Assembly: GCA_964630025.1 (NCBI GenBank) | Contig: CAZVRG010000001.1 | Coordinates: 1-55,361 of the forward strand | DNA length: 55,361 nucleotides | Source of the DNA: an uncultured Candidatus Saccharibacteria bacterium | GTDB taxonomy: Bacteria > Patescibacteriota > Andersenbacteria > UBA10190 > CAIZMI01 | Reading direction: 5' to 3' | Shown here: positions 7,852 to 40,074 of the stretch, in pieces | Numbering within the stretch: position 1 is the first letter of the stretch | Layout: each line of letters begins with the position of its first letter | Program-made: the position numbers and the translations under genes | Notes under the pieces: generated by a model | Database searches by the model: none | What the model saw: the letters and a program-made list of their open reading frames with translations, nothing else | Told to the model about the DNA's origin: nothing

Positions 7852-10248
7852 GTGCGCAAACGTCTGCTTCTTTCCGGAGGATGTGCGCTGTTTCTTGCGA
7901 CTGCCCTCGCGTTCATACCGTGGAGCGAGCGTGTGGTCTTTCTGCAGCCATCAGGAGATCCGAGCGACAATGAAGCCGTCAACGCCGAGCACGGGGCCGA
8001 ACAGCGTATCACCATTCCCGCAACACTCTCTCTTCGGGATGTCACCGTATTTCTCTGGCCGCCGGTGCCGGCAGGAGCTCTGGAAGCGCGTGTCCAGTCC
8101 CGAAACGGCACACGCAGTGCAACAGCATCTCTCGCACATACCAGCGCGGACGGCGTCCTTTCGTTTCGTTTCTCGCCTCTCCCCGTGCAAGAAGGCGAGC
8201 AGATTGTTGTCCGTCTCACAGTAAGAGACGCACAAGAGTCAATTGTGCTTCGCACTGCAACCGGCGTGACGGAAGACATGACCAGCGCCGTGCGGATTGG
8301 CAATGCAACGCGTGACCGCTCACTGGCGCTTTCGCTTGGCACACATCGTCCTCTTGGCACGCGCCTTCTTACCGTATTGCAGCCAACGGGTACAGCACTT
8401 CGCGCGATCGATGCGAACACGCTTGGTCTTGCGTTGCTCGGCGCAACGATCGGCGTTGGATTGTACATCGTGCTTCGTCAACCGCTTTCCTCGCAGCGCT
8501 TCTGGACCTTGTGTCTTGGCGCCGCGGCACTCTCCTTTCTTCTGCATCAGCCGTTTCTTCGCTCCTACCCGGCAACAAACGATGAGGGATCAATCCTTGC
8601 AGATGCAGTACACCTTTCGCCGGAGTTCTGGCCACTGCAAACCGGAGGCGCGAAAGGTCCACTAAGCCTGCTCGCACTCGCTCCTCTGGTGCGCGCTGTT
8701 GAACATCCTCTTCTTGCTGGACGGCAAGTTATCGCGTTGCTTACTGGAATTGAAGTCGTGCTCTTGGGCATTGCCGCGCGGAGATTGTGGAATGAACGCG
8801 CCGGCGTCGTGAGCGCGGTACTCTACGCCGTCACGCCGGCGGTGATTGCCCAAACGACGCAGGTGTTTCTGCAGCCCTTTGCGCTTCCTTTTGTGACGCT
8901 CGGGTGGATACTCCTGATGCCATCGCACGCGCCATCGAGCAGGCGTTATCTTCTCCGCATCGCGCTTGCGGGCTCCTGTTTCGCACTTGGATTTCTTGCA
9001 CGCCCGACCAGCCTTGCGTTCGCGCCTGCTGCATTCCTCGTGTTTCTTCTTCTTCCACGACAGCCTTGGTCACAGCGGCTGCGCGCCCTGCTACTCGCCG
9101 GTATCGGATTTCTTCTGGTGATCGCGATTGCGGGCGGTATCGCCGTTCCACTCCTCGGCGTGGAAAAAACCGTCGATCTCTTCGGATGGCAGGGATTCCT
9201 TGTCAGTCAGCAACGCGCGGATCAAGGACGTTCCACTCCAGGACTGCGGGCACTGATCGCCGTTCCGCGTTCTCTCACGGAACTGGATGCTGTTCTCCAA
9301 TATGCATGGCCATTGTTTGTTGGCGCATTGCCGGTTCTGCTGCTTGGCGGTGCTTTCATCCTGCAGAGCGTTGCAGCGGGTATCCGACTTCCGCTGCGCG
9401 CCGCCGTATTCCTGTACACCATCAGCGCGGCACTTGTTCTTGCTCTTGCGCTGCGCCTGCCGGCAATCTCCAGCCCATCCATACTGCATGGTGCGGTGCT
9501 TGGCGGCAGTCTTCTTGTCTTTTTCCTCGCGCTCGCGCACGCGATCAAACAACACAATAACTCGCCCCGCGCCCAAGCGCTTCGAGACCTTCTCCTGTTG
9601 TGCGGAACGTGGATCGTGCTTGTGGTTGGGTACGCGAATTATGGGCGCTTTCGTTTGCACTACCATGCGGAGTTTCTACCGCTCTACGTCATTGCGAGCG
9701 CATTTCTCATTGAAACCCTGTTCGTGCGCATTCCCGCCCACGGTCGCTCCTCCGCACGAGAAGTATGGAACATTGTTCCCGTCGCGCTTCTGGGCGCCGT
9801 GCTCGCGCTGTCATTTCCTACCACATATGCGCGGTATCACGCGGGAAATATTCCGCTCTCGGTTGCGGATGCGGTTGCCGCCGACCTTCGTGAACGCACG
9901 GCGCCAACGGAGGGCGTGTTCACCGCGCAGGTATTGTTTCCCGTGCTTGCGCACCGGCGCGTTCCCTACGGCATCGCGCATCCCGGGTGGTACCGGGAAG
10001 AAGCACTCGGTATGCTTCCACGCGGACTTCGCGCCCAGTATTATCCCGACCGCGACGCGTTGCGACGCGCAATCGAAACAACACCCATTCGGATCATTGT
10101 GATCGAGCGCCGAACGCGCGAAGTGTTCTTGGAGTTCGATCCGGAGCTGCGCAGACTCATTGACCAGCGGTACCGATTGGTGCGGACAGTTGATAATCCG
10201 CTTGTTGATGCGATTGAGATCTGGGAACGTCTCTCTTCAACCCCATGA
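7852..10248 (+). CDS. GT-C membrane glycosyltransferase, ArnT/PMT-like, with an N-terminal extracytoplasmic module and a C-terminal soluble domain (tandem paralog A)
   Basis: 798 aa with a GTG start. It has the signal-anchor MRKRLLLSGGCALFLATALAF, the first-loop motif NDEGSILADAVHL, and many TM helices. The C-terminal motifs HYHAEFLPLY and PIRIIVIERRTREVFLEFDPEL are shared with the next gene. Confidence 0.75.
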   Translation: MRKRLLLSGGCALFLATALAFIPWSERVVFLQPSGDPSDNEAVNAEHGAEQRITIPATLSLRDVTVFLWPPVPAGALEARVQSRNGTRSATASLAHTSADGVLSFRFSPLPVQEGEQIVVRLTVRDAQESIVLRTATGVTEDMTSAVRIGNATRDRSLALSLGTHRPLGTRLLTVLQPTGTALRAIDANTLGLALLGATIGVGLYIVLRQPLSSQRFWTLCLGAAALSFLLHQPFLRSYPATNDEGSILADAVHLSPEFWPLQTGGAKGPLSLLALAPLVRAVEHPLLAGRQVIALLTGIEVVLLGIAARRLWNERAGVVSAVLYAVTPAVIAQTTQVFLQPFALPFVTLGWILLMPSHAPSSRRYLLRIALAGSCFALGFLARPTSLAFAPAAFLVFLLLPRQPWSQRLRALLLAGIGFLLVIAIAGGIAVPLLGVEKTVDLFGWQGFLVSQQRADQGRSTPGLRALIAVPRSLTELDAVLQYAWPLFVGALPVLLLGGAFILQSVAAGIRLPLRAAVFLYTISAALVLALALRLPAISSPSILHGAVLGGSLLVFFLALAHAIKQHNNSPRAQALRDLLLLCGTWIVLVVGYANYGRFRLHYHAEFLPLYVIASAFLIETLFVRIPAHGRSSAREVWNIVPVALLGAVLALSFPTTYARYHAGNIPLSVADAVAADLRERTAPTEGVFTAQVLFPVLAHRRVPYGIAHPGWYREEALGMLPRGLRAQYYPDRDALRRAIETTPIRIIVIERRTREVFLEFDPELRRLIDQRYRLVRTVDNPLVDAIEIWERLSSTP

Positions 10249-12761
10249 ACACTCTGCACGAACCGCCTTCGTGGCGACCGTGGATCCCCGTGGTGGGAGG
10301 AATGGTGCTCCTGTGCGTCGCAGTTGTATACGTCTTGCTCCCAACATCGCGCGAGGTGTTGCGTACAACCGCCCCGCACACGCCCAGTGATGTCGAGCGT
10401 TTCGGGGGTGCGCGCAGCCTCGGCCAGAGTTTCATTGCGCCTGCAGACCGCCTCGCGGAAATCCGCCTGTTCCTGCAAACACCTGTGCCGCGGGACGCAT
10501 TTCCCATGCTCTTTCACCTTCGCCATGGCCGGTATGCAACAACAGATGTGCGTACCGTTACGGTGACTGCCAATGATATCGATATGGAGGGGGTCGTGCG
10601 CATCCGTTTCGCTCCCGTGCAGAAAAGCGGCGGACGCACGTACGTTTTTCTTCTCGACGCCGGTCGCGCTCCGTGGAAACGGCTCACAGCGTATCGCCAA
10701 ATTGACGGCACGATTTATGCCCAGGGACAGTTCTTTTCTGGCAACACCACGCAGGCGGGTATCGGGGATCTTGAGTTTGCCGCGATTGTCCGCGAACCGC
10801 GCATCCACGGCTTTTGGCACGCGCACCTCCGCCCCTTTCTTGATCAATTGCAAGGCCGTGTCCATACCCCTACAGAACAGCGGTATAGTGCAACGCCGCG
10901 GTTCTCCCGCGCGCTCGGGGTCGGGTGTCTCGCGATGATTGCGGTTCTGGCGTTGCTCTCTGTGCTCCGGCGCACGGGAACACCACGCATCTCGACAGTG
11001 CTCGCTCTGCTTGTTGTCGCGCACATGCTTCTTCATGCCCCGTTTTTGCTTCGCTACCCGGGCGTGAATGATGAGGGCTCCTACCTCATGGACATCCAGA
11101 ATATCCGTGCCGGCTATTGGCCATTTCGCGACACGCTCACCAAGGGGCCGCTATTCCTGGTGCTTCTTGCGCCGGTCGCACTCTTTTTTTCACACACGCT
11201 TCTTCCCGCGCGGATGATGGTCGCCGGCGTATCCGGCATCGAAGTGCTTCTTCTGTACATGCTGGGTCGGAGGTTTGGCGGACAGACTGTCGGGCTTCTT
11301 GCAGCCGCGCTGTGGGCGCTGTCCCCCGTCACCGTCGCACAAACGTCCCAGTTGTTTCTCCAGCCATTTTCGTTGCCGCTGGTGACACTCGCGTTGCTTC
11401 TCGCATTTCCGCATTCTGCATCTCCTGCTCCGCAGGGCACACAGCGCGCCCCGACGCATGCGCGGACTGCTCTCGGCGCGGGCATACTTCTTGCGCTGGC
11501 ATATCTCGTCCGGGCGTCATCCCTGGCCTTCGTCCCGCCAGTACTCCTCCTCGTAGTGACACAGCAGGATATGCGCGCCGGCATGCGCCGCGCACTCATG
11601 GTGCTTGCCGGCATGGCCGGAACATTCCTGCTTGTTGGCCTGCCAGCCCTCGCGCTTCTCGGATATGATCGCACCGCGGTGCTGTTTAACGTAGAGGCAT
11701 TTATCATCGGACACGCGCGAAGCGGGGGAGAAAGTGCAGCCGCAGCGTTTACCCTGCTTCCGCCATGGGAAATACTTGAACGCTTTAACGCGCATGGCGC
11801 GGTGCTCTTCCGTCTCGGCATGCCTCTCGTACTTTTGTGGCTGGCCGCGATTGCACGCACACTCACAACATTCCTTCGCCTGCCGGATAGGCTCAGCGTT
11901 ATTGGGTTTCTTGGTTTCAGTCTTCCGATTTTGCGTCTGGTGTACGCAGCAAACTTTACGCTCGCGGGGGAGCTCGCAAACTTTGGTCCCTCGTTCAAAG
12001 TACTCATGACCGTACTCACACTCCTTATCGTTGTTCTGTTGTGGTCATCTCCTTCACGCAGCCGTCTTTCTCGACGTCATGCTGGGAGGACACTCATCCT
12101 TCTGCTTGGAACATGGGTATCGCTTGCGGTGCTCTATATGTTCTTCGGGCGGTTCCGGCAGCAATACCATGCGGAGTTTCTCCCGCTCTACGTTACGGGA
12201 GGCGCGCTCTTTCTTGCAGAAACTCTCCCCATCATCAACGGGGACAGCATACGCGGACTGGTACAAACCTGGTGGCGATCTGGAACAGGCGTTCTCTGTG
12301 GGGTCGTTGTCGCGGCTGCGCTGTTCCTCTCATTTATTCCAAGTCGGGAACAGCCGCACACCGGCTCTATCCCACATCAGACTGCACGCGAGGTTGCAAC
12401 GATCCTCCGCGCGCACTCCGCACTGGGAGAAGAAATCCTCACGGCGCAAGGACTCTTCACATTCTATGCGGATCGTTTTCTGCCGTTCGGTGCTTCTCAC
12501 CCGGGATGGTACCTGGAAGAACGCGTCGGAACGGTGCCGACCGAACTTCGACGGCTCTTCCTCCCGGACAAAGAAGTGCTGCGACGCGCGATGCGCGAAA
12601 AACCGATCCGACTCGTGGCCATCGACCGTCGAACGCGCGAAGTCTATTTCAATTACGACCCCGAAATGCAGGCGCTCTTGAAATCCGAGTATCACCTTCT
12701 CGAGACCGTTCCGAGTCCGTACGAAGAGGATCCGGTGGAGATCTGGATCAAAAATGACTAA
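10245..12761 (+). CDS. GT-C membrane glycosyltransferase, ArnT/PMT-like (tandem paralog B)
   Basis: 838 aa. Its start overlaps the stop of the upstream gene (ATGA at 10245-10248). Motifs: NDEGSYLMDIQNI, QYHAEFLPLY, PIRLVAIDRRTREVYFNYDPEM. It is colinear with 7852..10248. Confidence 0.75.
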   Translation: MNTLHEPPSWRPWIPVVGGMVLLCVAVVYVLLPTSREVLRTTAPHTPSDVERFGGARSLGQSFIAPADRLAEIRLFLQTPVPRDAFPMLFHLRHGRYATTDVRTVTVTANDIDMEGVVRIRFAPVQKSGGRTYVFLLDAGRAPWKRLTAYRQIDGTIYAQGQFFSGNTTQAGIGDLEFAAIVREPRIHGFWHAHLRPFLDQLQGRVHTPTEQRYSATPRFSRALGVGCLAMIAVLALLSVLRRTGTPRISTVLALLVVAHMLLHAPFLLRYPGVNDEGSYLMDIQNIRAGYWPFRDTLTKGPLFLVLLAPVALFFSHTLLPARMMVAGVSGIEVLLLYMLGRRFGGQTVGLLAAALWALSPVTVAQTSQLFLQPFSLPLVTLALLLAFPHSASPAPQGTQRAPTHARTALGAGILLALAYLVRASSLAFVPPVLLLVVTQQDMRAGMRRALMVLAGMAGTFLLVGLPALALLGYDRTAVLFNVEAFIIGHARSGGESAAAAFTLLPPWEILERFNAHGAVLFRLGMPLVLLWLAAIARTLTTFLRLPDRLSVIGFLGFSLPILRLVYAANFTLAGELANFGPSFKVLMTVLTLLIVVLLWSSPSRSRLSRRHAGRTLILLLGTWVSLAVLYMFFGRFRQQYHAEFLPLYVTGGALFLAETLPIINGDSIRGLVQTWWRSGTGVLCGVVVAAALFLSFIPSREQPHTGSIPHQTAREVATILRAHSALGEEILTAQGLFTFYADRFLPFGASHPGWYLEERVGTVPTELRRLFLPDKEVLRRAMREKPIRLVAIDRRTREVYFNYDPEMQALLKSEYHLLETVPSPYEEDPVEIWIKND

Positions 12762-12809: not shown

Positions 12810-13625
12810 ATGCCACTTGCAGAGCGCACGCTCGTCCTTATCCCGACATACAATGAGGCGGATAATATCGGGTTGATTCTCGACCAGATATTTTCTGTCG
12901 AGCCGCGGCTGTCCGTGCTCGTCATTGATGACACCTCTCCAGATGGGACCGCGGATGTCGTGAAGGAGCGTATGACCAAGCATCCGAATCTCTTTCTGCT
13001 TCTCCGCTCGACGAATCGAGGTTTTGCACATTCGTATCGCGACGGTTTTCGCACTGCTCTCCTGAACGATCGTTTCGAGGCAGTGGTGACGATGGACGCG
13101 GATTTTTCTCATGAACCGAAAGAACTTCCCACGCTTATTGGCCTTCTCGAAGCGGGCGCAGATGTCGCCGTTGGCTCTCGCCACGCACAAGGAGGACGGT
13201 TCCCTGGGATCGCGCTCTGGCGACGTATCTTGAGTCGATTCGCGAATCGGTACGTACGCTGGATCCTCGGCACGCCCTTTACCGACAGCACCGCCGGCTT
13301 CATTGCCATGCGCGCATCCGCGCTCCGGCGTGTTCCGGCAGCGCAGCTCCGATCCGGCGGATACGGCATTCTGTTTGAACTCAAGTATCGCCTCTTCCGA
13401 AGCGGCGCACGGATTGTTGAACACCCGGTCGCCTGGCCAAGGCGACATCAAGGCGATTCAAAAATGACCCTCGCAATTATGTGGGACTCGTTCCTGCTCC
13501 CCTGGAAAATCCGCTTGGGGATACTGCCGCCGGTGCGCGCAGAAGTTCCTGAAGCGTCGCTGGCTGTTGTTGGAAGTCAAGCACTTCGCGTCCGAGAACC
13601 GCAAACTCTGGAAGCGGAACGATAA
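12810..13625 (+). CDS. polyprenol-monophosphate sugar synthase (Dpm1/Ppm1-like GT2)
   Basis: Motifs: LVLIPTYNEADNI, VIDDTSPDGT, MDADFSHEP. It has a ~33 aa non-conserved tail relative to its paralog at 44653..45369. That tail overlaps the convergent gene. Confidence 0.85.
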   Translation: MPLAERTLVLIPTYNEADNIGLILDQIFSVEPRLSVLVIDDTSPDGTADVVKERMTKHPNLFLLLRSTNRGFAHSYRDGFRTALLNDRFEAVVTMDADFSHEPKELPTLIGLLEAGADVAVGSRHAQGGRFPGIALWRRILSRFANRYVRWILGTPFTDSTAGFIAMRASALRRVPAAQLRSGGYGILFELKYRLFRSGARIVEHPVAWPRRHQGDSKMTLAIMWDSFLLPWKIRLGILPPVRAEVPEASLAVVGSQALRVREPQTLEAER

Positions 13626-14862
13626 ACTTTCCGCCGCGCTCGAGAAAGGCACGCTCGCGCTTTACAAATTCTGAAAGAAAGTGCCATGGAAGCACAAGAA
13701 AATACGCGGGTTCCGCAGCCCGTGCATCTTCTTCAGACATAATGGGGATGAGCGTGCCCACGGTCTTTTTCCCCCACTTATCAGGATTCCGCTCCGCAGC
13801 TGCCCGAATCAACGATGTATCCAGATTGAAATACTGAAGAAGGGTATTTCCTTTTGTGGATGCACCATAGACATACACGGTGCTTCCTTTTGCCGTTTCC
13901 GCCTTTAGAAATTCCACAAGCCGCCGCTTGATCGTCTCGACGCGATCAGCAAATGCGTGATACGTCTCGACATCCAGCAGCGCCCATGCATGTTCGGCTT
14001 CTTCAAGCTCTCGCATACGGTCAGCAGCGCCGGGAAATGGCTGCACCGCTGCGTTTCGATGAGTGACATAGACGCGAAAGCTTCCGCCGTTGACATCGTT
14101 CAGCTCAACATCAATCACCCGAAGCCCGTGGCGGGAAAGAAGCGTGTTCAGTGAGCCGAGGGCGTAGTATTCGAGATGCTCATGGCAGATATTATCAAAG
14201 GCATTCTGCTTCAGCATGAGCGGAAGATAACTCATTTGGATCACCCAAACACCGCTCTGGGCAAGACAGCGCGCGGCATCGGCAACGAAGATGTTCGGGT
14301 CTTCCAGATCGTAGAACATGGCGATACTGGTGATGACGCTGGCTTTCGCTGTTCCGGCAATATCCGAAAATCGTTTGGCGCTGAAGAAATCGTTGATGAT
14401 GTCGATGGACTCTTCACGCGCATACGGCATGAGATTGATTGCTGGCTCAAATCCGATGCGGCGCAGCCCTGGCGCTCGATAGTGTCGCAATAACGTACTG
14501 TCATTGCTCCCGATATCAACAACGACATCTCCCGATGCGAGCGGTACGAGTTGCTCGACTTTGTCGGTAATGTCCGCGAGCGCACGCCGCATTGTTTCAT
14601 TGACGCCCGAGCGATACCAGTAATTCCGGTAGAGAACCCCCGCTTCCACCGTGTGGCGAAGCTGGAGGAGTCCGCATCCCCCGTTCCGTGGGTTGCACAG
14701 TACAAGATCGAGCGGCGCCTGCGCGCTTTTCGTCGGCGCGTCGACAAAATTCGATACGTGTTGCTCTCCGAGTGACAACACCGATGTGAGCATGGACGAC
14801 CCGCAGGAGCGGCACGTCGTACGTGTCTGCACGGAGAATCCGTCGGCGAGATGCTTGTTCAC
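13477..14862 (-). CDS. SAM-dependent C-methyltransferase, NDP-hexose C-methyltransferase type (paralog 2 of 3)
   Basis: 461 aa. Motifs: zinc ribbon CRSCGS ... CNPRNGGCGLLQL, YWYRSGVNETM, VVDIGSNDS, VYGASTKGNTLLQ, LVLPWHF. It has a ~37 aa C-terminal tail beyond the conserved GGKFIVPLPEF end. Confidence 0.8.
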   Translation of the reverse strand: MNKHLADGFSVQTRTTCRSCGSSMLTSVLSLGEQHVSNFVDAPTKSAQAPLDLVLCNPRNGGCGLLQLRHTVEAGVLYRNYWYRSGVNETMRRALADITDKVEQLVPLASGDVVVDIGSNDSTLLRHYRAPGLRRIGFEPAINLMPYAREESIDIINDFFSAKRFSDIAGTAKASVITSIAMFYDLEDPNIFVADAARCLAQSGVWVIQMSYLPLMLKQNAFDNICHEHLEYYALGSLNTLLSRHGLRVIDVELNDVNGGSFRVYVTHRNAAVQPFPGAADRMRELEEAEHAWALLDVETYHAFADRVETIKRRLVEFLKAETAKGSTVYVYGASTKGNTLLQYFNLDTSLIRAAAERNPDKWGKKTVGTLIPIMSEEDARAAEPAYFLVLPWHFLSEFVKRERAFLERGGKFIVPLPEFAVLGREVLDFQQQPATLQELLRAPAAVSPSGFSRGAGTSPT

Positions 14863-14920: not shown

Positions 14921-15682
14921 ATGGACACGCAGAAAGCACCCGCGACCCGCACGATGGTGCACTCACCAGAGCACACACGTGATGCGCGCATTCCTCTGCA
15001 AGAAGACGCAACGCGCGAGCGTGTCTGGGATAACATCTGGCGCCAGCGCGGTGTCATCATGAAACTTATCGCCGCCATTCGACACGGATTACATCAACTG
15101 CATCAGCAACTTCTTCTCGATATACTCCCGCCTGACGCGGATGTGTTGGAACTCGGGTGCGGAACCGCCTCGCTCACGTTGTCACTCGCACCGCGGTTCC
15201 ACCGCCTCGTCGGCCTCGATATTTCTGACGAGGCACTTCGTATCGCGGAGACCGCGCGTGCGCGATTGGGCATTCAAAATGCCGAGTTCGTTAAAGGCGA
15301 TTGTCGGTCTGCTCCGTTTACCGACGCGTTTGATCTTGTCTGGAGCGCAGGACTCATTGAACACTTTTTTGACGACGACTGGCGCATTGTGCAGGAACAT
15401 CTCCGAGCAGCAAAGCCTGGCGGCGTCGCGCTCATAAGCGTTCCGAGTACATATTCCCTCCATCATCTCCATTATCTTGTGACGCGCCCGACAATGCTCC
15501 GCCGCTTCTGGCCGTGGTCCGATGTGCGTCACTTCCAGAAATTTTATTCCCCACGCGAGCTCGTCGCCGTTGGCCGCCGCAGCGGCTATCCGTCTCGCGT
15601 GTTCTACCTCCCGCCTCGCATCATTGGATTCTTCCTCGGCATTCTCGTTCTTGAGATCCGAAAGGACAACAATACGTTCTAG
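14921..15682 (+). CDS. class I SAM-dependent methyltransferase
   Basis: Motif I is VLELGCGTASLT, followed by LVGLDISDEAL and DLVWSAGLIEHF. The protein is about 250 aa and the start could be an internal Met. Confidence 0.8.
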   Translation: MDTQKAPATRTMVHSPEHTRDARIPLQEDATRERVWDNIWRQRGVIMKLIAAIRHGLHQLHQQLLLDILPPDADVLELGCGTASLTLSLAPRFHRLVGLDISDEALRIAETARARLGIQNAEFVKGDCRSAPFTDAFDLVWSAGLIEHFFDDDWRIVQEHLRAAKPGGVALISVPSTYSLHHLHYLVTRPTMLRRFWPWSDVRHFQKFYSPRELVAVGRRSGYPSRVFYLPPRIIGFFLGILVLEIRKDNNTF

Positions 15683-17277
15683 CGACTGCGGAGTGCTCGG
15701 ACGTCGTAGAGTTCAATCCGCGGGCCTGCGCTTTTCCATGGTTGCGGTTCAATAAAGAACACACGAGCGCCACGGGAACGAACCTCGTCATAGAACGCGC
15801 GATACGATGCCGTCATCTCCGGATAGAGCCGCATCGAGGTGGACTCGTAATATCGATCAACAAGCCGTGAGTCGAGCACGATGTAGTCAACACCTTGGTT
15901 CAACCATTCCGCAAGCGGTTTCGCTCGATGATCGGCGATTCTCCGATCATCCCGTCCACCGATATTCGCGTATTCCTCACGGAGAAGGAGCACAGTGTGT
16001 CGCGTGCTGCGTGGATTCAGAAAGACAAGCGGCCCGTGTTGCAGCACGGTTGCTCCGGATGGAATATGTTCCTCCGCCCATGCGACTGCTGTCGGCAAGG
16101 TTGCTTCTCCGGCATACGCACGGTCAAATGCGCCGACATTCCAGAGCGCCCCGCCCACGCCAACAAGGGCGAGACCAATTGCGGTGCCTCGGGCAACGGC
16201 GCGTGCACGCGGAAGAAGTGCTGGGGCATACACCACGCCATACGCCGCCGCGAGTGCAAGAAGCGGCGTCAGTGGGAGAAAGCGCTTTACCGCGTGCATG
16301 CGCACATACGCAGCCATGACAATATAGAGGACGAACAGAACACCACCGAGAAGGACAACGGCGCGATAATCGCGACGCCACGCCGCAACGATAACACCAC
16401 CCACCGCAAGGAGAAAAACCGCCAACGGCATTTCCCACACGAAACCGGATACCGTAAATGACAATCCCCAATCAGGAGATTGTGTGAGCAGCGGCCAGAG
16501 CAGATCGGAACTTGTGTATCCCAGATCGCCACCCGCCGCACGAAGGGAAAGTCCGTGATAGATTGCTCGTGCTTCCTGCCGCTCGATAAGTTTCCATGGA
16601 TTTGTCAGCGCAAAGGTGAGCGGAATCATGAACAACCCGACAATAAACGCTGGACGCAGGAGCGTTCGCCACCAGTGCGACTGACGCAATGCCCACCCTG
16701 CGTGCGCAAAGACAAGAGCAATACCGACCATGATGCCGTAATACTGGCTTGCAGCCGCGAGGCCTGTCAGCACGCCGGTCGTGACATACCATCGTCGTGT
16801 TCCCTTCTCCCACAAAAGAAACGCCGCTGCGACAGTGGCAAGCATGAAGAATGCGGCAAGCGGATCAACGTGTGCGTAATGCGCGTACTTCACGGCGAGT
16901 GGAGAAACAGCCGCAAAGAGCCCTCCAAGAAGACCGAGCGCCCAACCGCCGATATGCCGACCGAGCCAGATGGTGAGTGCAACGGTGAGCACACCAATGA
17001 TGACTGTTGTGATGCGCGCGACGGTCGTTGGATCCCATGCATCCTTTGGAACGATCTGCCCAACCACCGAAAAGATGCCGCCGTGAAGGTAATAGCCAAG
17101 ATGGGGATACCGAGCGCCACTGGGTGCGAGTGGACGGTCCGTGTCTCGCACACGAAGACCCGCCGCCGGACCGACAAGCTTGTTCTCGTCTGTCGGCAGA
17201 TGATGCGTAACGCCAACAAGCCGCGTCAGCAACGCAAGCGCAAGGATGCCTCCTGCCACGATCGTCTGCCGGCGCAT
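15679..17277 (-). CDS. GT-C membrane glycosyltransferase, ArnT/PMT-like
   Basis: 532 aa. It has an N-terminal helix followed by the loop motif TDENKLVG, then more than 10 TM helices and a soluble C-terminal domain. Its start overlaps the stop of the upstream oxygenase ORF by 1 nt (TGATG). Confidence 0.72.
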   Translation of the reverse strand: MRRQTIVAGGILALALLTRLVGVTHHLPTDENKLVGPAAGLRVRDTDRPLAPSGARYPHLGYYLHGGIFSVVGQIVPKDAWDPTTVARITTVIIGVLTVALTIWLGRHIGGWALGLLGGLFAAVSPLAVKYAHYAHVDPLAAFFMLATVAAAFLLWEKGTRRWYVTTGVLTGLAAASQYYGIMVGIALVFAHAGWALRQSHWWRTLLRPAFIVGLFMIPLTFALTNPWKLIERQEARAIYHGLSLRAAGGDLGYTSSDLLWPLLTQSPDWGLSFTVSGFVWEMPLAVFLLAVGGVIVAAWRRDYRAVVLLGGVLFVLYIVMAAYVRMHAVKRFLPLTPLLALAAAYGVVYAPALLPRARAVARGTAIGLALVGVGGALWNVGAFDRAYAGEATLPTAVAWAEEHIPSGATVLQHGPLVFLNPRSTRHTVLLLREEYANIGGRDDRRIADHRAKPLAEWLNQGVDYIVLDSRLVDRYYESTSMRLYPEMTASYRAFYDEVRSRGARVFFIEPQPWKSAGPRIELYDVRALRSR

Positions 17278-17882
17278 CAGTCTTCGAACGTGAATTTCTT
17301 TAACGCATTGACATTCACTTCTTTCAGCCGGGAAAGCGGAAGTTTGGTGAATGTAAGCTCGTCATCAAAGACACGATCAGCAATGTTCGATGGGAGCCCG
17401 TAAAAATCCTTGAAACCGAGACGCAACATCTTGTGCCGGCGGAGTTTCAACGGAAGGTCTTCCTGCCATACCTGTTCATTCCACTTCGGAATCATAAATG
17501 ACAGGAGCGGTGCAAGAATACGTTTCCACCCCATAAGAAAGAAACGGTAGTTCATGGTGATACGACAATGATCATGTCGATCTTCCTCAATACGAATCGT
17601 TGTGAGTACTGGAACGCCAAAGAGTCCAACGTTCACTGCTTTGATGACATCCGGCGAGTGCTGAATCATCACGTTGAGACTGTGTGACTTCAGAAATGAG
17701 AACACCGGCAAGCGATAGGTCAACAGCAGGGCAGCCATAAAATCATTCTCATAGATAATCTTCGCGTCGGTATAATTGGAGTGCACAACAACAAGATGTT
17801 CATGATCCCAGTAATTCCATAAGACCGCCGCTCGACCGGCGTCGAGCTCTCGGGTATACGTTCTTTCAACGACGTGCGTCAT
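17277..17882 (-). CDS. non-heme iron catalytic domain of a Rieske-type oxygenase (VanA/PaO-like), encoded as a separate ORF
   Basis: 201 aa. WNYWDHEHLVVVH matches the mononuclear-iron motif D-x2-H-x4-H of Rieske oxygenase alpha subunits. The size fits the C-terminal catalytic domain of class IA oxygenases. It overlaps the Rieske ORF by 17 nt. Confidence 0.6.
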   Translation of the reverse strand: MTHVVERTYTRELDAGRAAVLWNYWDHEHLVVVHSNYTDAKIIYENDFMAALLLTYRLPVFSFLKSHSLNVMIQHSPDVIKAVNVGLFGVPVLTTIRIEEDRHDHCRITMNYRFFLMGWKRILAPLLSFMIPKWNEQVWQEDLPLKLRRHKMLRLGFKDFYGLPSNIADRVFDDELTFTKLPLSRLKEVNVNALKKFTFED

Positions 17883-18225: not shown

Positions 18226-18230
18226 GGTAT

Positions 18231-20110: not shown

Positions 20111-20246
20111 TGCATCGTTCCCGATCGCTCCCATACGGGTGACTGTGCGTCGTGGTCGGAAGATCTTCCTCTTCTCATGAAGAAGGGGGGTGCTCCGATC
20201 GAGGAGGTGCGATGCCGCATGCGCAGTGGCACGATATACTGACATC

Positions 20247-29480: not shown

Positions 29481-29482
29481 CA

Positions 29483-31862: not shown

Positions 31863-32864
31863 ATGAACTCGGAAACGCCCCCTTTCAACAATTCGTCGTC
31901 TTCTTCAGGAACACGCTCCGCAACGATCGCGCGTTTGAGCGGCTGGGCAGAGCGCCGCGGACAGCTGAAGGGCATCGCCCTTATCGCCATCACGCTCGTC
32001 GTATTCTGGATTCTTTTCCGCCGTATTGATGTGGGGGTAGTGTTGGAAACACTCTCGGTTGTTCCTGCCTGGGCTTGGTTTGTCTCTCTCCTGTTCACGT
32101 TGTCGTTCCCCATCCTCTCGGCACTGCGCTGGCACTACACGCTACGCATGATCGGCCATCATATTCCATTCATGCGTTGTCTAAAAATCATTCTGGGGAC
32201 GTCACCCATCAGTGCGATTTCTCCATCGAAAGCCGGAGATTTTCTTCGCGCGGTAAGCCTCCGTGGAGAAGTCAGTGTTCTCGAAGTCGGAGGAACGGTG
32301 CTCGCGGAGCGTGCGCTGGATGTCCTCGTGCTCGCCGGACTCGCGTTCCTCGGCGGTGTGCTGATCGGACATACGCTCATTACCCGTTTCGCGGCAGCGA
32401 TTATTGCCATTGGGGTTGTCGGCCTACTGGTGCTTCCTCTCCTCGTTGCGTCTATCCCGAAACCCGCGGTACGTGAAAAACTCGAACGGCTCATTCGCGT
32501 TCTGCGCATGCTTCGCCAACAGCCCGGCATCGCGCTGGCCGTCGTATTCTTCACCATCTTGAATTGGCTGGCATCCATCATACAAACGCATGTTCTTCTT
32601 CTCGCGGTAGGAGCGCATCCGCCCTTTTGGCTTACGGTCGCAACGCTGCCGATCGCCATTTTCGTCGGTCTTCTTCCCGTCACGCTGGGCGGCATGGGAA
32701 CACGGGACGCGGCGCTCGTGACACTGCTGAGTTCAGCGGCAACCGCGCCACAGGCTCTCGCCGTCGGCTTGCTCTATTCGTTCTTCGGCTACTGGCTCCT
32801 CGCGATTCTCGGCCTCCCGTTTATGAGCAGCGCACTTTTCAGAAATCATAGCCAACGTTCTTAA
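31863..32864 (+). CDS. flippase-like membrane protein (lysylphosphatidylglycerol-synthase TM-region / UPF0104 family)
   Basis: 333 aa with about 8 TM helices. The motif region is ILSALRWHYTLRMIG ... ISPSKAGDFLRA ... LLPVTLGGMGTRDAA. This family commonly accompanies GT2 enzymes. Confidence 0.65.
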   Translation: MNSETPPFNNSSSSSGTRSATIARLSGWAERRGQLKGIALIAITLVVFWILFRRIDVGVVLETLSVVPAWAWFVSLLFTLSFPILSALRWHYTLRMIGHHIPFMRCLKIILGTSPISAISPSKAGDFLRAVSLRGEVSVLEVGGTVLAERALDVLVLAGLAFLGGVLIGHTLITRFAAAIIAIGVVGLLVLPLLVASIPKPAVREKLERLIRVLRMLRQQPGIALAVVFFTILNWLASIIQTHVLLLAVGAHPPFWLTVATLPIAIFVGLLPVTLGGMGTRDAALVTLLSSAATAPQALAVGLLYSFFGYWLLAILGLPFMSSALFRNHSQRS

Positions 32865-33107: not shown

Positions 33108-34028
33108 TCAAATAAATTTAATCAACTTCCCCCGGTCCGGGCCAATGTGCTGCTTAAACTCTTTCCAGAGATCGTCCCAATAGTCTAGTTTCTCGGCATC
33201 ATCAACTATAAAGTACCAGTCGTCCCGCAATTCATCTCTCCTTATCGCAAACGCGTGGTCTGGGTAGAGCCAGACAAAGCGTCTGATTATGATTTCCGAA
33301 ACTCTCCGACGAAGCCTTTCTTTGGATATGTATCGCAACATGTACTTATTTAGGAACTCCGTTCCATAAGTCTCTGCAATTGCCAGGAGTCTTTTTGCTT
33401 GATTATAAATTTTGACGTCCTCCTGACAGAGCATGGGTGAGATCAATTTCGAGATAGATTCACTTGCTACCATCAAACTTCTTTGGATCGGTAATCCGAA
33501 GTCCGCGTGTATTTCGTTGGCTAGGGCCTTTTGTCTCTCAATCGCAATGTCGATCATCCCGTCAATTGACTTCACTATATCTAGAGCGGATATCCTAGCT
33601 GTTTCATCGCCTGGATGTGTCATAGGTTTATCAAGAGGACCTACTTCAGAGATGGGACCCATAATTAATTTGTTTGCGCCGAAGCACATCAATGTTCCCG
33701 AACTCTTGGCTTCTTGGGGAATCGCTATTGTTATTTCTTCGTACTTCGTTCTTAAGATATCCATGATTTTCACGGCGGAGTAGATATTGCCACCACTTGT
33801 ATCGAGCAGTATTAGGAGTTTCTTTAGCGAGTTTTTCATTTCGCGCAGAAGCTCGTAAACAGTTATCTCGTCTTCTGGTTGTATACTCTGTAAGAAGATT
33901 CCGTCTTTATCCTTTGGGTAGAGCATTAAAAGCACATCGCTTTCTTTAAGCAACTTCTGGATAGGGAGTACTTTTTCCTCTGGTTGAACCGGAGTTGTAT
34001 CTGATTTTTTCTCCTGTATCTCTTCCAT
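33108..34028 (-). CDS. Clp-fold serine protease, SDH (serine dehydrogenase proteinase) family-like, with a helical C-terminal domain
   Basis: 306 aa. LLILLDTSGGNIYSAVKIMDILR ... IPQEAKSSGTLMCFGANKLIMGPISEVGPLDKP follows the ClpP/SppA/SDH pattern (TxGG ... A-x-S-x-G-T ... LGP-D-P). G+C is 42 per 100 nt (33301-33400) against 55-59 in the flanks. Confidence 0.65.
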   Translation of the reverse strand: MEEIQEKKSDTTPVQPEEKVLPIQKLLKESDVLLMLYPKDKDGIFLQSIQPEDEITVYELLREMKNSLKKLLILLDTSGGNIYSAVKIMDILRTKYEEITIAIPQEAKSSGTLMCFGANKLIMGPISEVGPLDKPMTHPGDETARISALDIVKSIDGMIDIAIERQKALANEIHADFGLPIQRSLMVASESISKLISPMLCQEDVKIYNQAKRLLAIAETYGTEFLNKYMLRYISKERLRRRVSEIIIRRFVWLYPDHAFAIRRDELRDDWYFIVDDAEKLDYWDDLWKEFKQHIGPDRGKLIKFI

Positions 34029-35059: not shown

Positions 35060-37348
35060 ATGGAGAAGAACATGCGCATTCGGTTCTCCATCGCCGTTGG
35101 CGTCGCATGTCTTGGCGTGCTGTTCATTCCCACCGACGCCGTTCGCGAGTCCAACGGACCAAAAGAGGAAGCGCAGTATATCCGCCGTCTGTACGAGGAT
35201 CATACAGTCGGACAAACGCTCGACAGCATGCATCCCGTGCATGCCATGCACATTCTCGTTCGCAGCGAGCAACCACAGGAGTCAACAATCATCGCCACAG
35301 ACGAAACGGAACGCGAGCGGGGACGCGTAACGACGCCCGTGACTCCGCAGGACACGTGGATCCGCTTCGATTTTTCTCCACCCCTGTCGCCGGGGAAACA
35401 GGCAATCACATTTCGCACGCTTCCGGACGTTCCGAAGGAACGTTCAGTCCTCCTGCGGTACCAGAGTGATTCCCGATTTTATGCACACGGATACATGATC
35501 GTTGATGGAGAGCCCTCCTACGGCGATCTTGCGTTTCGCGCGATTGAGCGCCTCCCGTTCTGGCGGAATGTGCTCCTGTGGGGGAACATCACGCCGGACA
35601 GCGCCATACGCGGGGGAAAGCGTATCAGCGCCGGTCTTGTCGTCGGCGGCGTACTGATGATCGCCGCGCGGACGATACGGACGACGCGGAGACCCCGGCT
35701 CGCGATCACACTCTTTCTTCTCCTGATCGCGGCTGCTGCGATCATCATCCGTCTTCCCGTTGCGTGGACGATTGAAGGCGTCTACGGGGGAGATGCCTTC
35801 AATTACCTTTCCAAGACGAATGCGCTTCTGCAGGGAGAGGATTTCTTCGCCGCCGACCCGCGAAAAGGGCCGCTCTACTCCCTCTTGCTGATCCTTGGGA
35901 TGTTCACCAGCGATCCGCTTGCCTGGTCGCGGCTTGTCGGCATTGGAGCGGCGGCCGGCGCCATTGCCCTTCTGCCATTGGTTGCGCGTCGCTTCTCACT
36001 CTCCTGGGAGATGGCGCTCGGTGCCGCCGGCCTCTTGGCAGTGAACCAGGACTTCATCTGGGAATCACCCAACGGCCTCGCCAATACGCTTTTTGCCGTC
36101 CTTATTGTGGCCGCAACCCTCGCGTATCTGAACGCCAACGACCGACGCTGGCAGTGGGCGCTCGCCGTGCTGCTTGGCATGACCTTTCTCACGCGGTATG
36201 AGGGGGGATTGCTGTCGGCGGTGTATCTGCCGGCATTGTGGATCCGCGAGCGGCTATCCTGGAAACGGGCGATACTGCTCGGCGCGACCACGGTCGCCAT
36301 CATGGCAATTCCGCAGCTCTCACTCCTTTGGTCGGGAACTCCGGGCATCCGCACGGCTACCGACGTACTCAACGACGGGGGATTATCTCTCGCCCACTCC
36401 GTTCGGGACTACCAAAATAATGCGAACCGTTTCCGTGAGTTTTCCGCGGCGGTATGGATATTCCCAGGAGAGAAGAGTCTCGTTGTACCCGTCATCGTGG
36501 GTGGTCTTCTGATTGGCGGCGTCCTGACGGGAATGCGGCGGCGTCTGATGGACGCACATGTGCTCCTCGGGCCGGCGCTCGCGGTGCTCTCGCTTGTCGT
36601 GTTGTGCATCCTCGTTCTTGGGAAATCTTCACGTCTGCGTGAGTATCTTTCGGCAGTGCCGTGGCTGCTGATTGGCATTGGCATCACTCCCTGGGTCGCC
36701 ACCAGAGTTATCGATGCGCTTGCTGTCTGGGGAGTAGTCGTGAGTCAGATCGCGATCGTCACGCTCATCCTGCCAAAACCCCGCTATTACCTTCACCTCA
36801 TTCCACTCCTTGCGCTCGGCATGGCGTTCGGGGTTCAGCACCTTGCGCAATGGAGAAACAGCTGGTATCCCCGTGCCGTTGCCGCACTGACGATCGGGAT
36901 ACTGACCAGTGTCTTCTACGTGGACGGACAGAAGACACTTGAAGGGCGCATCGAGAAGTACAACAAGCAGGCCCAGCATGTGTATGTCATGATGCAGGCG
37001 GTCAAAGATCTTCGCCGCCAGTCTCAACCCGCAGGATTCCGCACACCAGACGAACCGCCTATTGTCGTGTACCTCCCCACGGGACGTCGTTTCTTCTTCA
37101 CGGATACGGAGGAGAGTGGCGTTGGCGAACGCGAACTGCAATGGATACAAGAGAACAACGTGTGGTATGTCGTGGAGCGCAACGAAGGAAACGTCTGGCA
37201 GAGTGTTCGGGAGCACCCGGATCTCTTTGAGCACCCGCGCATCTTCGTGAGTACGTTTGGGAACGCGCGCGTTTCTGTCTACGGCGTTCATCGCGATCGC
37301 GTGCAGGCATTTTTCACCGCACGAGAAGAGCCGTCCGGGGCATTGTAG
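35060..37348 (+). CDS. GT-C membrane glycosyltransferase, ArnT/PMT-like, with an N-terminal extracytoplasmic module
   Basis: 762 aa. It has an anchor helix (IAVGVACLGVLFIP), the first-loop motif GDAFNYLSKTNALLQGEDFF, many TM helices and a soluble C-terminal domain. Confidence 0.72.
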   Translation: MEKNMRIRFSIAVGVACLGVLFIPTDAVRESNGPKEEAQYIRRLYEDHTVGQTLDSMHPVHAMHILVRSEQPQESTIIATDETERERGRVTTPVTPQDTWIRFDFSPPLSPGKQAITFRTLPDVPKERSVLLRYQSDSRFYAHGYMIVDGEPSYGDLAFRAIERLPFWRNVLLWGNITPDSAIRGGKRISAGLVVGGVLMIAARTIRTTRRPRLAITLFLLLIAAAAIIIRLPVAWTIEGVYGGDAFNYLSKTNALLQGEDFFAADPRKGPLYSLLLILGMFTSDPLAWSRLVGIGAAAGAIALLPLVARRFSLSWEMALGAAGLLAVNQDFIWESPNGLANTLFAVLIVAATLAYLNANDRRWQWALAVLLGMTFLTRYEGGLLSAVYLPALWIRERLSWKRAILLGATTVAIMAIPQLSLLWSGTPGIRTATDVLNDGGLSLAHSVRDYQNNANRFREFSAAVWIFPGEKSLVVPVIVGGLLIGGVLTGMRRRLMDAHVLLGPALAVLSLVVLCILVLGKSSRLREYLSAVPWLLIGIGITPWVATRVIDALAVWGVVVSQIAIVTLILPKPRYYLHLIPLLALGMAFGVQHLAQWRNSWYPRAVAALTIGILTSVFYVDGQKTLEGRIEKYNKQAQHVYVMMQAVKDLRRQSQPAGFRTPDEPPIVVYLPTGRRFFFTDTEESGVGERELQWIQENNVWYVVERNEGNVWQSVREHPDLFEHPRIFVSTFGNARVSVYGVHRDRVQAFFTAREEPSGAL

Positions 37349-37497: not shown

Positions 37498-40074
37498 ATG
37501 ACTCCGGTGCGTTGGTTCGCAGGGGGCATCGCGCTGCTTCTTGGCGGTGTGATTCTTCACACGGTGATTGTTGTGGATGATATTCCTGATATCACGCACG
37601 AGGTTGCAACGTACGTCACAGAAAATTCTATCGCGCTCTGGGGACCCCACACCGTCGGGCAGACAATTCTCCCACCATCACCGAATATCAGCGGCATTTC
37701 GCTTTCTCTTCGCCGTTTGCCTGGAACGCGGCTCTCCGGGCAGATCACTCTCCATCTGCGCGAATCGGCGGATGCAGCGGAGGACCTGCGTACCGTCCGA
37801 CTCCCGGCAACATTTGTTCAGGGAGACCCATTTACTGACTTTCTGTTCCCGCCGCTCCCCACGCAAAACCGCGAACAGTTGTATTTCTTTGTTGAATATG
37901 CGCAGGGCACAGAAGAAGCACCGCTCGCGCTCCGCGCCGAACAGCGATATGGGACCCCACAGGAAGCAAGCATTGTTGATTACCAAAGAGGAACGCTCAC
38001 ACGTGACCATCAGGCAGTGCCCGGCGATCTCGCGTTCCGACTGCTCAAACGCGCACGCCGCCCCCTCGGACTTCAAGGAGTGGCGGCCGCCATACTTGGC
38101 GGTGCTGCATTGATGACTGGTGGCATCGCGTCATTCGCCGTGCGGCGTGGACGGATGCGCGCGTCGTTGGTACTTCCTATGACCTTCGGTATCATCGGCG
38201 CCGGACTTCCGCTGGTGTTCACCCTTCCATTCTTCATCCATCCCTCGTTCCTCGGTATCGGGGATTGGGACATGAACACGACGCTGCATGCGGCAGCAGA
38301 ACGCGCAATCATTCGCGAGCAATCATTTCCGTCGTGGAACCCGTATCTCTGCGGCGGCACGCCGCTTGCTGCATTCCCGGAAGCCCCTGTCTTCTCACCG
38401 TTTTTCTCTACCGTGCTTCTGGGCGGCGCGGTGCAAGGATTTAAAGTGAACATTCTTTTACACGGCAGTGTGGCGTTTCTTGGCATGCTGGTGTGGCTGC
38501 GAAAAGGATGGAAGGTCTCATGGCCTGCCGCGTTCCTCGGTGCTGCCGTCTTTGCTTTTTCTCCGTACATCGGGTTGCATCTTGCTGCCGGTCATTCACG
38601 TAAGGTTGCCGCAGCGTGGATTCCATGGATCTTGTTTTTCTTCCAGCGCGCAATGGAGGAAAAAATTTCTAAGTACCAAGCTCCAAGTACCAAACAATTT
38701 CCAAAGTCCAAATCCCCAATGCGAACGTTTGGAGCTTGGATTCTGGAGCTTGGAGCTTCGCGAGGGCTGCGCTGGACTGCCCCTGCAGGCGCTTTCTTGT
38801 CATTGATGTTTCTCGATGGCAGTGTGTACCTGTCGGTTTACACTGCAACATTCGTCGCACTCGTCGGCGCGTTCGCCAGCGTGCTCGAGCGACGCTGGCG
38901 CCCTATCGTTGCGGGGATTCTTGTTCTTCTTTTGGGCGGTACTCTTGCCGGCGTGCACCTTGTTCCCGCTGTCCTTTCACAAACAACATTAAAAACGGAG
39001 TTGAGAAACGAAACATCGCCGTTGCCGGTCAGCGCGCTGTGGTCCGTCTTTCTTGATCCCGATCAGCGCGATGATGCGCAGAAATTCGACGCGCAAACAC
39101 AGCCATGGTTTGAGTATGGAGCGTATGTCGGTATCGGACCGTTGCTTCTGGCATTCGTCGGGCTTCTGGTGAAAAGAAAAACAGTGGTTCCATGGGTTGG
39201 TGCTGGTCTTTTTTTCTTACTCGTCCCACTTTCAGGATACCTGCAACGATGGAGTGAACTGATTCCTCTGTTTGGCGATTTGCGAAACCCACAGCGCATG
39301 CTGGGCATGATGACCATTGTCATCGGCATTCTTGCCGCAATTGGATTTGAGCGATTGACACAGTGGCTCCAGGGATCTTCGCAAACTGTGCCCCCGGAGC
39401 ACACGGCGTCGTATCGCGCTATTCGTGCCTCTCTTGGCGTGCTCGCCGCGATCCTGATCGGCCACATGATATTCATGAATACCGATACGCTTGCCAATAC
39501 ATTCATTGTTCCGCCGCCACCGGCACGGGAAGCGCCGTTCCAGCAGGGATGGGCACGGAGTCGTCACATCGGAGAGAAAGACTCGTTCGCGTTCACCATG
39601 GAAAACACGGTGCAGAACCGAGGCTCCATGAACCGGTGCTCGGTGGCCAGTGTGCGCACCACGGAGGCGTTGCGCATCCCCCTCTCGAAACCGGGAGAAG
39701 AAGTTGCGGCAAACTTTCAGGATGCCGCGTACCTCGGCGAGGCATTTTTCCTCGAGGGCGAGGGATCCGCAACGGTTGACGTACACACAACAAACCGTGT
39801 TCGGGTCCGATATGAAACACGCACCCCGGCAATACTTGCCATTAATGAGAACATGCATCACGGGTGGAGTGTGGTTCATGACGCCGACGGCGCGTCTTCT
39901 TCGCGCCCCGCGGACGGAACGAGCGGCCTCGTGACAACATCTCTCTCGCCCGGCTCCGGCGTAGTGACCTTTTCGTACGCAACGCCGGGACTTGGTGCGG
40001 GCATCCTGGTCACAACGCTGGGGATCATTGCATCGCTATCCCTGTGGTACCTGGCGGCACGGAAATCACCATGA
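37498..40074 (+). CDS. YfhO-like GT-C membrane glycosyltransferase with an N-terminal extracytoplasmic module
   Basis: 858 aa. It has the first-loop motif FPSWNPYLCGGTPLAAFPE, many TM helices, a C-terminal beta domain and a terminal anchor (ILVTTLGIIASLSLWYL). It carries a 96 nt in-frame repeat insertion. Confidence 0.7.
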   Translation: MTPVRWFAGGIALLLGGVILHTVIVVDDIPDITHEVATYVTENSIALWGPHTVGQTILPPSPNISGISLSLRRLPGTRLSGQITLHLRESADAAEDLRTVRLPATFVQGDPFTDFLFPPLPTQNREQLYFFVEYAQGTEEAPLALRAEQRYGTPQEASIVDYQRGTLTRDHQAVPGDLAFRLLKRARRPLGLQGVAAAILGGAALMTGGIASFAVRRGRMRASLVLPMTFGIIGAGLPLVFTLPFFIHPSFLGIGDWDMNTTLHAAAERAIIREQSFPSWNPYLCGGTPLAAFPEAPVFSPFFSTVLLGGAVQGFKVNILLHGSVAFLGMLVWLRKGWKVSWPAAFLGAAVFAFSPYIGLHLAAGHSRKVAAAWIPWILFFFQRAMEEKISKYQAPSTKQFPKSKSPMRTFGAWILELGASRGLRWTAPAGAFLSLMFLDGSVYLSVYTATFVALVGAFASVLERRWRPIVAGILVLLLGGTLAGVHLVPAVLSQTTLKTELRNETSPLPVSALWSVFLDPDQRDDAQKFDAQTQPWFEYGAYVGIGPLLLAFVGLLVKRKTVVPWVGAGLFFLLVPLSGYLQRWSELIPLFGDLRNPQRMLGMMTIVIGILAAIGFERLTQWLQGSSQTVPPEHTASYRAIRASLGVLAAILIGHMIFMNTDTLANTFIVPPPPAREAPFQQGWARSRHIGEKDSFAFTMENTVQNRGSMNRCSVASVRTTEALRIPLSKPGEEVAANFQDAAYLGEAFFLEGEGSATVDVHTTNRVRVRYETRTPAILAINENMHHGWSVVHDADGASSSRPADGTSGLVTTSLSPGSGVVTFSYATPGLGAGILVTTLGIIASLSLWYLAARKSP
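38662..38757. repeat. CCAAA/TTTGG-rich imperfect palindromic element inserted in-frame in 37498..40074
   Basis: AAGCTCCAAG (38678-87) pairs perfectly with CTTGGAGCTT (38749-58). CCAAAC (38690-95) pairs with GTTTGG (38727-32). The 13-mer GTTTGGAGCTTGG is shared with the element at 46331..46465. The element encodes 32 aa that are absent from all four paralogs at this loop. Confidence 0.65.

Follow-up and report, generated by a model that had tools for sequence, protein, structure and literature searches.

The DNA analysed here, called the window below, is a stretch of 55,361 nt (contig CAZVRG010000001.1 of assembly GCA_964630025.1) from an uncultured Candidatus Saccharibacteria bacterium. It encodes ten polytopic proteins resembling GT-C glycosyltransferases, seven of which carry a copy of a homologous module of about 140 amino acids (aa), and the other three carry none. 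All seven copies lie in plus-strand open reading frames (ORFs), which we named A to G. By the envelopes of a profile hidden Markov model (HMM), the module occupies positions 7939-8358 in the PMT_2-type GT-C protein A (ORF 7852-10248, aa 30-169), 10362-10805 in the PMT_2-like protein B (10245-12761, aa 40-187) and 35147-35563 in the GT-C protein F (35060-37348, aa 30-168). In the YfhO-like proteins it occupies 20352-20789 in C (20190-22661, aa 55-200), 28197-28673 in D (26598-29480, aa 534-692), 29600-30025 in E (longest ORF 29357-31837, aa 82-223) and 37597-38064 in G (37498-40074, aa 34-189).

The seven segments are homologous and their MAFFT alignment is collinear. When each copy was left out of the profile in turn, the omitted copy scored 35-56 bits (D only 13), and the maximum among 1,000 shuffles was 10.6 bits. 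A further profile was built from non-window sequences alone and run against the 527 six-frame ORFs. This outside-only profile gave 114 bits for B, 110 for G, 86 for E, 84 for F, 80.5 for C, 34.9 for D (E = 1.7e-10) and 27.5 for A (E = 1.9e-8), while the best remaining ORF reached only E = 0.79, so the window holds exactly seven copies. Comparison of module-only profiles between the types with hhalign gave E = 2e-9 to 6e-21. Pairwise BLAST between the copies was modest (E 1e-5 to 1e-2), as might be seen if short hydrophobic motifs in the N-terminal regions of unrelated membrane proteins resembled each other by chance. However, the leave-one-out and outside-only profiles score far above the shuffles and all other ORFs, and the module has a wide database spread (1,200 clusters, 106 of them at E <= 1e-10) and a confident AlphaFold2 (AF2) fold, both described below; chance was therefore rejected as having a negligible probability.

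An earlier note on this DNA, made from the letters alone, had described seven segments sharing three ordered motif blocks, with a GDLAF motif in the last. All its motif strings were found in the translations of A to G, its coordinates agree with the HMM envelopes within about 30 nt except at the start of D (42 nt), and the blocks align far above shuffled sequences. The homology and the number of copies thus stood, but the third block was not supported for copy A. Copy A diverges most from the others, with a degenerate C-terminal third, and the outside-only profile matches it only at positions 6-112 of 145, so RSLALSL is unsupported as the counterpart of GDLAF. In copy D, an insertion of about 20 aa that contains Cys precedes the last strand and is followed by PDLAMRM, which finds its place in the alignment only with profiles built with D included. 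The DNA identity between copies, low as the note had said, is 34-43% in codon alignment, with matches of just 14-26 nt over the GDLAF codons, which indicates old paralogous domains and not recent duplications.

A predicted transmembrane hairpin ahead of the GT-C core

In six of the seven proteins, hydropathy analysis placed a predicted transmembrane (TM) helix on each side of the module, and we call the resulting TM1-module-TM2 unit the cassette. The cassettes, all on the plus strand, span 7864-8475 in A (TM1 7864-7920, TM2 8419-8475), 10284-10967 in B (TM1 10284-10340, TM2 10911-10967), 20283-20864 in C (TM1 20283-20339, TM2 about 20808-20864), 29519-30097 in E (TM1 29519-29575, TM2 30041-30097), 35078-35677 in F (TM1 35078-35134, TM2 35621-35677) and 37501-38121 in G (TM1 37501-37557, TM2 38065-38121). 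In each of the six, TM2 is followed by a short loop rich in lysine and arginine (K/R), a third helix and a loop with an acidic motif of the DE/DxD type. In A, the first core helix is predicted at 8503-8559 and the acidic loop, NDEGS, was placed by motif position at 8578-8592. The corresponding motifs are NDEGS at 11067-11081 in B, TDEGDW at 21009-21026 in C, GGDAFNY at 35786-35806 in F and GDWDMN at 38260-38277 in G.

In 62 of the 73 cassette proteins from the database and the window together, the loop between TM2 and TM3 does not exceed 30 aa, and its K+R density is 0.23 per residue, compared with 0.10 in the module; the N-terminal tails are positively charged. A short loop so rich in K/R fits a predicted topology in which the TM2-TM3 loop is cytoplasmic and the module extracytoplasmic. 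Alignment with paralogues that lack the cassette (D, a protein we call H and the product of 3691-5313 on the minus strand) showed offsets of 195-246 aa, which bring their TM1 into register with the third helix in C and F. The offset of C was 224-246 aa relative to D and H, and that of F was about 195 aa relative to the 3691-5313 protein. What has been added is therefore a TM1-module-TM2 hairpin ahead of an otherwise complete core.

The module of D lies instead in a large C-terminal region between hydrophobic helices at aa 472-490 and aa 927-945, the latter being the last helix, and the YfhO family model suggests that this region is extracytoplasmic. Hydropathy thus bears out what had been noted before, namely that in six proteins one N-terminal helix precedes the module, which in D sits in the predicted C-terminal ectodomain. 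The idea of a module on one anchor helix holds for that N-terminal helix, but the unit is a hairpin with a second extra helix.

Two observations concern the gene boundaries. The longest ORF of E (from 29357) shares its first 124 nt with the end of D (stop at 29480), and an in-frame ATG at 29483, 3 nt past the D stop, opens a short positively charged N-tail, MDFPTLDARLRR; this ATG is probably the true start of E. The ORFs of A and B share 4 nt (10245-10248), a sign that they may be translationally coupled.

The cores that carry the module belong to three lineages in the window: A/B, F and YfhO-like. Against a Pfam threshold of 26.1 bits for PMT_2, A scored 33.3 bits and B 24.2 bits, below it, and B is 37% identical to A over 627 aa. 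The core of F gave no Pfam match, and in a core-only hhalign comparison it matched the A/B type with a probability of 95.4% (E = 1.8e-8). By PMT_2 score or profile homology, together with the acidic first outer loop, A, B and F can be assigned to PMT_2/ArnT-like GT-C enzymes on sequence grounds. The YfhO threshold is 28.5 bits, and C (27.7), G (26.7) and D (21.8) all remained below it, with no match for E; the precomputed annotation in the collection lists PF09586 for G. C, D, E, G and H are mutually linked by BLAST, and the core of E is linked in this way to C (E = 1e-21) and G (E = 2e-12). The earlier note had named two core families, ArnT/PMT-like and YfhO-like; the lineages number three.

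Three GT-C-like proteins of the window gave no module match. They are encoded at 3691-5313 on the minus strand (540 aa, at least nine hydrophobic helices, BLAST match to F with 30% identity over 191 aa, E = 5e-9), at 15679-17277 on the minus strand (532 aa, PMT_2 40.3 bits) and at 45386-47863 on the plus strand (protein H, 825 aa, YfhO-like and the closest paralogue of D). A database relative of the 15679-17277 protein, P0107, does carry the module, at its C-terminus.

Distribution and shuffling of the module

An exhaustive profile search of 1.84 billion representative sequences, clustered at 50% identity, found the module in 1,200 clusters at E <= 1e-3, and the top 150 of these were used for architecture counts. 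Near-full-length matches above 40 bits were found in 131 of the 150. A prefiltered protein search gave no match with the seven-copy profile and only ten small proteins with a profile of 56 family sequences, and its word prefilter evidently misses most members. Polytopic proteins make up 84 of the 150 clusters and include PMT_2, PMT, YfhO, DUF6541 and PTPS_related types; 66 (plus 5) have an N-terminal cassette, and in 13 the module comes after at least three helices. Proteins shorter than 320 aa account for 35 clusters (20 with a TM-module-TM layout), and the remaining 31 have other layouts with at most five TM helices (20 with 2-5 copies of the module). After masking of the module, the proteins of at least 450 aa fell into at least ten groups that BLAST did not link (eleven multi-member clusters and 18 singletons), among them YfhO-like, PMT_2/PMT and DUF6541-like cores and families without a Pfam assignment. 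The N-terminal cassette occurs with five or more polytopic cores that are unrelated to one another.

For every paralogue in the window there is a separate orthologue with 45-52% identity and an identical architecture; P0005, the orthologue of B, shows 51% identity over the whole protein and 57% over the module. In two other metagenome-assembled genomes of the candidate phyla radiation (CPR), one of Parcubacteria and one of Saccharibacteria, a single locus carries copies of the B, D and E types, and in both the D-type protein has the module at the same position as in D. The module was kept in all 16 orthologues of G, where its mean column identity was 0.47, compared with 0.49 for the TM core.

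Some carriers are not polytopic. P0041 (1015 aa, no predicted TM helix) consists of GT4 and WsaF-like rhamnosyltransferase domains with the module at aa 773-909, C-terminal and presumably cytoplasmic, which argues for a glycan-related recognition that is not tied to a GT-C ectodomain. Four large proteins (P0007, P0040, P0084 and P0097; 1183-2447 aa, 0-2 TM helices) contain several module stretches, with up to four full-envelope copies, and suggest that the module is also used in surface or adhesin-type proteins. Some database matches were partial and spurious, such as that of P0011, a PKD-repeat protein.

Core-only and module-only comparisons with hhalign gave discordant results. Between the A/B type and the YfhO-like type, the cores reached only E = 0.0019 (probability 14%) and the modules E = 6e-21; between the A/B type and the F type, the cores reached E = 1.8e-8 and the modules E = 2e-9. 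The most similar module was carried by a protein with an unrelated core in 32 of 104 cases. Modules with 45-53% identity sit on unrelated cores and at opposite ends of the protein, and those with up to 50-53% occur N-terminally on DUF6541-like proteins and C-terminally on PMT-type and Pfam-less proteins. This discordance, together with closely similar modules on unrelated cores, indicates that the domain was shuffled between cores, a conclusion that these sequence comparisons support well. Sole vertical descent from one cassette-bearing ancestor was also considered, since full-length hhalign alignments are collinear through TM2, TM3 and the catalytic loop, but it was rejected because of the same discordance and of highly similar modules on unrelated cores and at opposite termini. 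The view of a mobile domain, put forward before from the two core types alone, is thereby strengthened, and a stand-alone gene for the module adds to it.

This stand-alone gene encodes a TM-module-TM protein of about 200-218 aa and was found in three diverged loci that all keep the gene order GT87, module, PMT/PMT_2, at positions 8001-8657 (L001/L002), 1920-2501 (L013) and 1243-1845 (L014). Its flanking genes overlap it or lie at most 15 nt away, and more GT-C genes follow. The stand-alone genes come directly after GT87, within runs of at least five consecutive GT-C genes for proteins of about 540 aa (PMT_2, PTPS_related and unassigned). The co-occurrence with GT-C cores in other genomes, which the earlier note had proposed to check, was found both in the polytopic carriers and in this conserved gene order. 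The operon order and the fusions together form evidence of the Rosetta-stone type that the module works with lipid-carrier-dependent glycosyltransferases.

Fold, relatives and proposed role

The module of copy C was modelled with AF2 from the alignment of 56 family sequences. The model is an all-beta jelly roll of 11 strands with a mean predicted local distance difference test score (pLDDT) of 92.9 and a predicted TM-score (pTM) of 0.87; it replaced a mediocre model from seven sequences (pLDDT 68.5). The beta-sandwich suspected from the alternating hydrophobic pattern is therefore what the model predicts. In Foldseek searches, with the TM-score normalised to the query (TMq), the neighbours were a DUF5901 protein of PBCV-1 (0.72), baseplate proteins of phage phi812 (0.64-0.67), gp20 of mycobacteriophage Douge (0.62), minor tail proteins of mycobacteriophages (about 0.6), the lectin-like domain of Cwp84 (0.53-0.56), the PHR domain (0.53) and the carbohydrate-binding modules (CBMs) CBM6 (0.48) and CBM35 (0.44). 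The best match in BFVD had E = 2e-6, and the CBM6/CBM35 matches had E = 3e-3 to 3e-2 and are matches of the fold. We are confident that the predicted fold is a jelly-roll beta-sandwich, but no specific structural family is picked out by it. CBM6/CBM35, lectin-like modules, phage tail and baseplate modules and the Cwp84 domain share this common fold (TMq 0.44-0.75) and are likewise used as accessory domains of carbohydrate-active or surface-binding proteins, but they have no sequence relationship to the window module.

Searches of Pfam, NCBIfam and PDB sequences with the module gave no match at threshold, and PDB sequences returned only noise with both profiles, so the statement that it belongs to no named domain stood at this level. 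Two Pfam families, DUF4082 (PF13313) and DUF6212 (PF19717), were the only ones matched by more than one member at E <= 10, and the module could be a divergent member of one of them that current models miss, a possibility we take seriously although we lean against it. The weak matches are collinear and reproducible and fall on the central strands of the module, and the DUF4082 length of 143 equals that of the module (about 145). For DUF4082, aa 75-127 of A matched profile positions 42-95 of 143 with 12.3 bits, and other members matched about positions 36-97, the best being P0095 with 25.2 bits, all below the gathering threshold of 28.4 bits. For DUF6212, five of the 56 members matched positions 103-220 of 395; the best match is known by its E-value alone (7.3e-6), and three members examined singly scored 11.9-17.1 bits, below the threshold of 26.4 bits. 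Against membership, every match with a known score is thus below threshold, and most copies are undetected even at E = 10: DUF6212 matched no window copy and DUF4082 none but A. Neither family was matched by the other six window copies or by some 48 of the 56 members. Sensitive profile-profile tools might merge the module into a DUF4082/DUF6212 superfamily, which seems to us possible but somewhat doubtful. A literature search on DUF4082, DUF6212 and CPR glycosylation found no description of the module. Both families are without a known function or relevant literature, so such an assignment would leave the functional picture unchanged.

The closest known design is that of the mycobacterial Emb arabinosyltransferases EmbA/B/C (GT53). 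In EmbB, an N-terminal jelly-roll CBM (N-CBM) lies between two extra TM helices ahead of the standard GT-C core (PMC7341804; PMC7305291), that is, between helices TMH1 and TMH2, with the DDX motif in the loop PL2 (Zhang et al., PMC7305291). According to the 2020 EmbB paper, this combination of two extra helices and a CBM was absent from other solved glycosyltransferase structures (PMC7341804). The window cassettes agree with it in having a beta-sandwich between TM1 and TM2, outside the cell by predicted topology, and flanking helices that are additional to the canonical GT-C set, and the catalytic acidic motif of Emb is in the loop after the third helix, as predicted in the window proteins. 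However, no match to Emb was found in Pfam or PDB sequences, and no Emb chain was among the top 50 Foldseek matches. The host cores also differ, being PMT_2-like, YfhO-like, DUF6541-like and others in the window and the database and GT53 in Emb. In Emb, the N-CBM packs against a C-terminal CBM and completes a beta-sheet shared by the two. Unlike the Emb N-CBM, the module is also found at the C-terminus of proteins, in tandem arrays and encoded by a gene of its own, and it has CPR carriers. The window cassettes thus resemble the Emb N-CBM in design but are outside the Emb family, and the Emb-like design of two extra helices plus a CBM extends to many other GT-C-like cores. In other GT-C systems, the MIR beta-trefoil of PMT, the CBMs of AftD and the beta-rich C-terminal domain of GT136 are likewise non-catalytic outer domains thought to handle the acceptor, and MIR (in a luminal loop) and the AftD CBMs (C-terminal) have other folds or insertion points than the window module. 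Among these systems only Emb has a portable TM-domain-TM hairpin.

On balance, we think that the module forms one ancient extracytoplasmic jelly-roll family, without prior annotation, which serves as an accessory module of lipid-carrier-dependent GT-C glycosyltransferases and binds or positions the acceptor glycan. The first extra helix would run from the inside to the outside, the domain of about 140 aa would fold outside and the second extra helix would lead back in; in six proteins this hairpin would precede the normal first helix of the core, and in D the same domain would be carried in the C-terminal ectodomain. Because the hairpin stands ahead of the first core helix, the core topology would be unchanged and the domain would be tethered beside the catalytic acidic first outer loop. 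There it may bind or position the acceptor glycan, a polymer or a growing end, next to the active site, and by analogy with the Emb and AftD CBMs each paralogue of the island might gain its own acceptor preference. Elsewhere the same unit could act on its own, as a small membrane protein whose gene lies between those of GT-C enzymes. The analysis shows that the copies are homologous, how they are predicted to fold and to lie in the membrane, that the domain is widespread and was shuffled among cores, and that it keeps its linkage to GT-C genes; ligand binding and an effect on specificity are what we infer. The ruler function that the earlier note had also suggested gains no particular support from these results.

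Several points weigh against this interpretation. The tandem arrays and the TM-less GT-B fusion mean that the domain is restricted neither to GT-C enzymes nor to the cell exterior, and a more general binding or scaffold role is possible. Only generic structural matches were obtained (the best in the PDB has E = 2e-4, TMq does not exceed 0.67 and CBM6/CBM35 are below 0.5), and the conserved C-terminal motif is lost in copy A. For EmbB, the proposed acceptor path runs via the C-terminal CBM, and the role of the N-CBM may be mainly structural (PMC7341804). An alternative is a structural or assembly domain that binds no substrate and stabilises the outer loops or mediates oligomerisation or partner docking, a role also proposed for the periplasmic domain at the N-terminus of EmbB, which is packed against the C-terminal one. 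The most conserved residues of the module are largely hydrophobic strand residues (FxFxP, and L and F of GDLAF), and the stand-alone form would suit a docking subunit. But the tandem arrays with few or no TM helices and the soluble GT4/WsaF fusion have no GT-C ectodomain to stabilise, and polar or loop residues (Q of GQTF, YxxG and GD) are also invariant or nearly so, so we regard a purely structural role as unlikely. CPR bacteria are commonly episymbionts, and the module could instead recognise a protein or surface, such as an S-layer protein, a pilin, a Ser/Thr-rich acceptor or a host cell, and not a glycan polymer. In favour of this, the PMT-type cores (A, B and relatives of F) are in a superfamily with protein O-mannosyltransferases, the closest folds are those of baseplate and tail proteins of phages and of a domain from a clostridial S-layer-associated protein, and multi-copy versions occur in long surface-type proteins. 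However, characterised YfhO-type enzymes modify teichoic acids, the gene context is dominated by sugar-modifying enzymes and the GT4/WsaF fusion points to glycan chains, which makes recognition of proteins or host surfaces improbable in our view.

A bolder version of the acceptor-binding interpretation is that the module is a portable acceptor-recognition cartridge, used as TM-module-TM before or behind many unrelated GT-C cores or in trans as a small subunit, as in the GT87-module-PMT operons. We offer this as speculation that is unlikely to hold; if true, swaps of the cartridge would re-target enzymes to new surface polymers and provide a modular envelope diversification in CPR and other bacteria. 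Outside the membrane, GT-C enzymes add sugars to cell-wall polymers, lipids and surface proteins, and their choice of acceptor is poorly understood outside a few models. The module gives a concrete handle on this choice, being a conserved, confidently foldable ectodomain that is expressible alone. A new domain model is justified, and the annotation of thousands of 'hypothetical proteins' would improve with it.

Other genes of the glycan-synthesis island

The window is almost wholly given to glycan synthesis. Besides the GT-C-like proteins, it encodes four GT2 enzymes, sugar-nucleotide dehydratases and epimerases, three sugar C-methyltransferase-like proteins (2324-3649; 13477-14862, minus strand; 25287-26576), a carbamoyltransferase (5317-7029, minus strand), an LPG_synthase_TM flippase-like protein (31863-32864) and MurJ (40044-41690). 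CPR bacteria are a group with small genomes, and ten GT-C-like proteins look like a large investment for one of them; on a single 55-kb CPR contig they point to a complex, uncharacterised envelope glycan.

Two ORFs of about 600 aa, 22758-24569 and 41168-43000, matched neither Pfam nor NCBIfam and have at most one hydrophobic helix; the start or reality of the latter is uncertain because about 520 nt of it also lie, in another frame, within the MurJ ORF. A Rieske [2Fe-2S] protein (17866-18531, minus strand), a trypsin-like peptidase (19226-20110, plus strand) and a ClpP/NfeD-like serine protease (33108-34028, minus strand) are encoded amid the glycosyltransferase genes. The ORF at 54104-55315 on the minus strand is an unusual fusion of the C-terminal part of NeuB, a SAF domain and a xylose-isomerase-like TIM barrel (AP_endonuc_2), which suggests the synthesis of a sugar of the nonulosonic-acid type.

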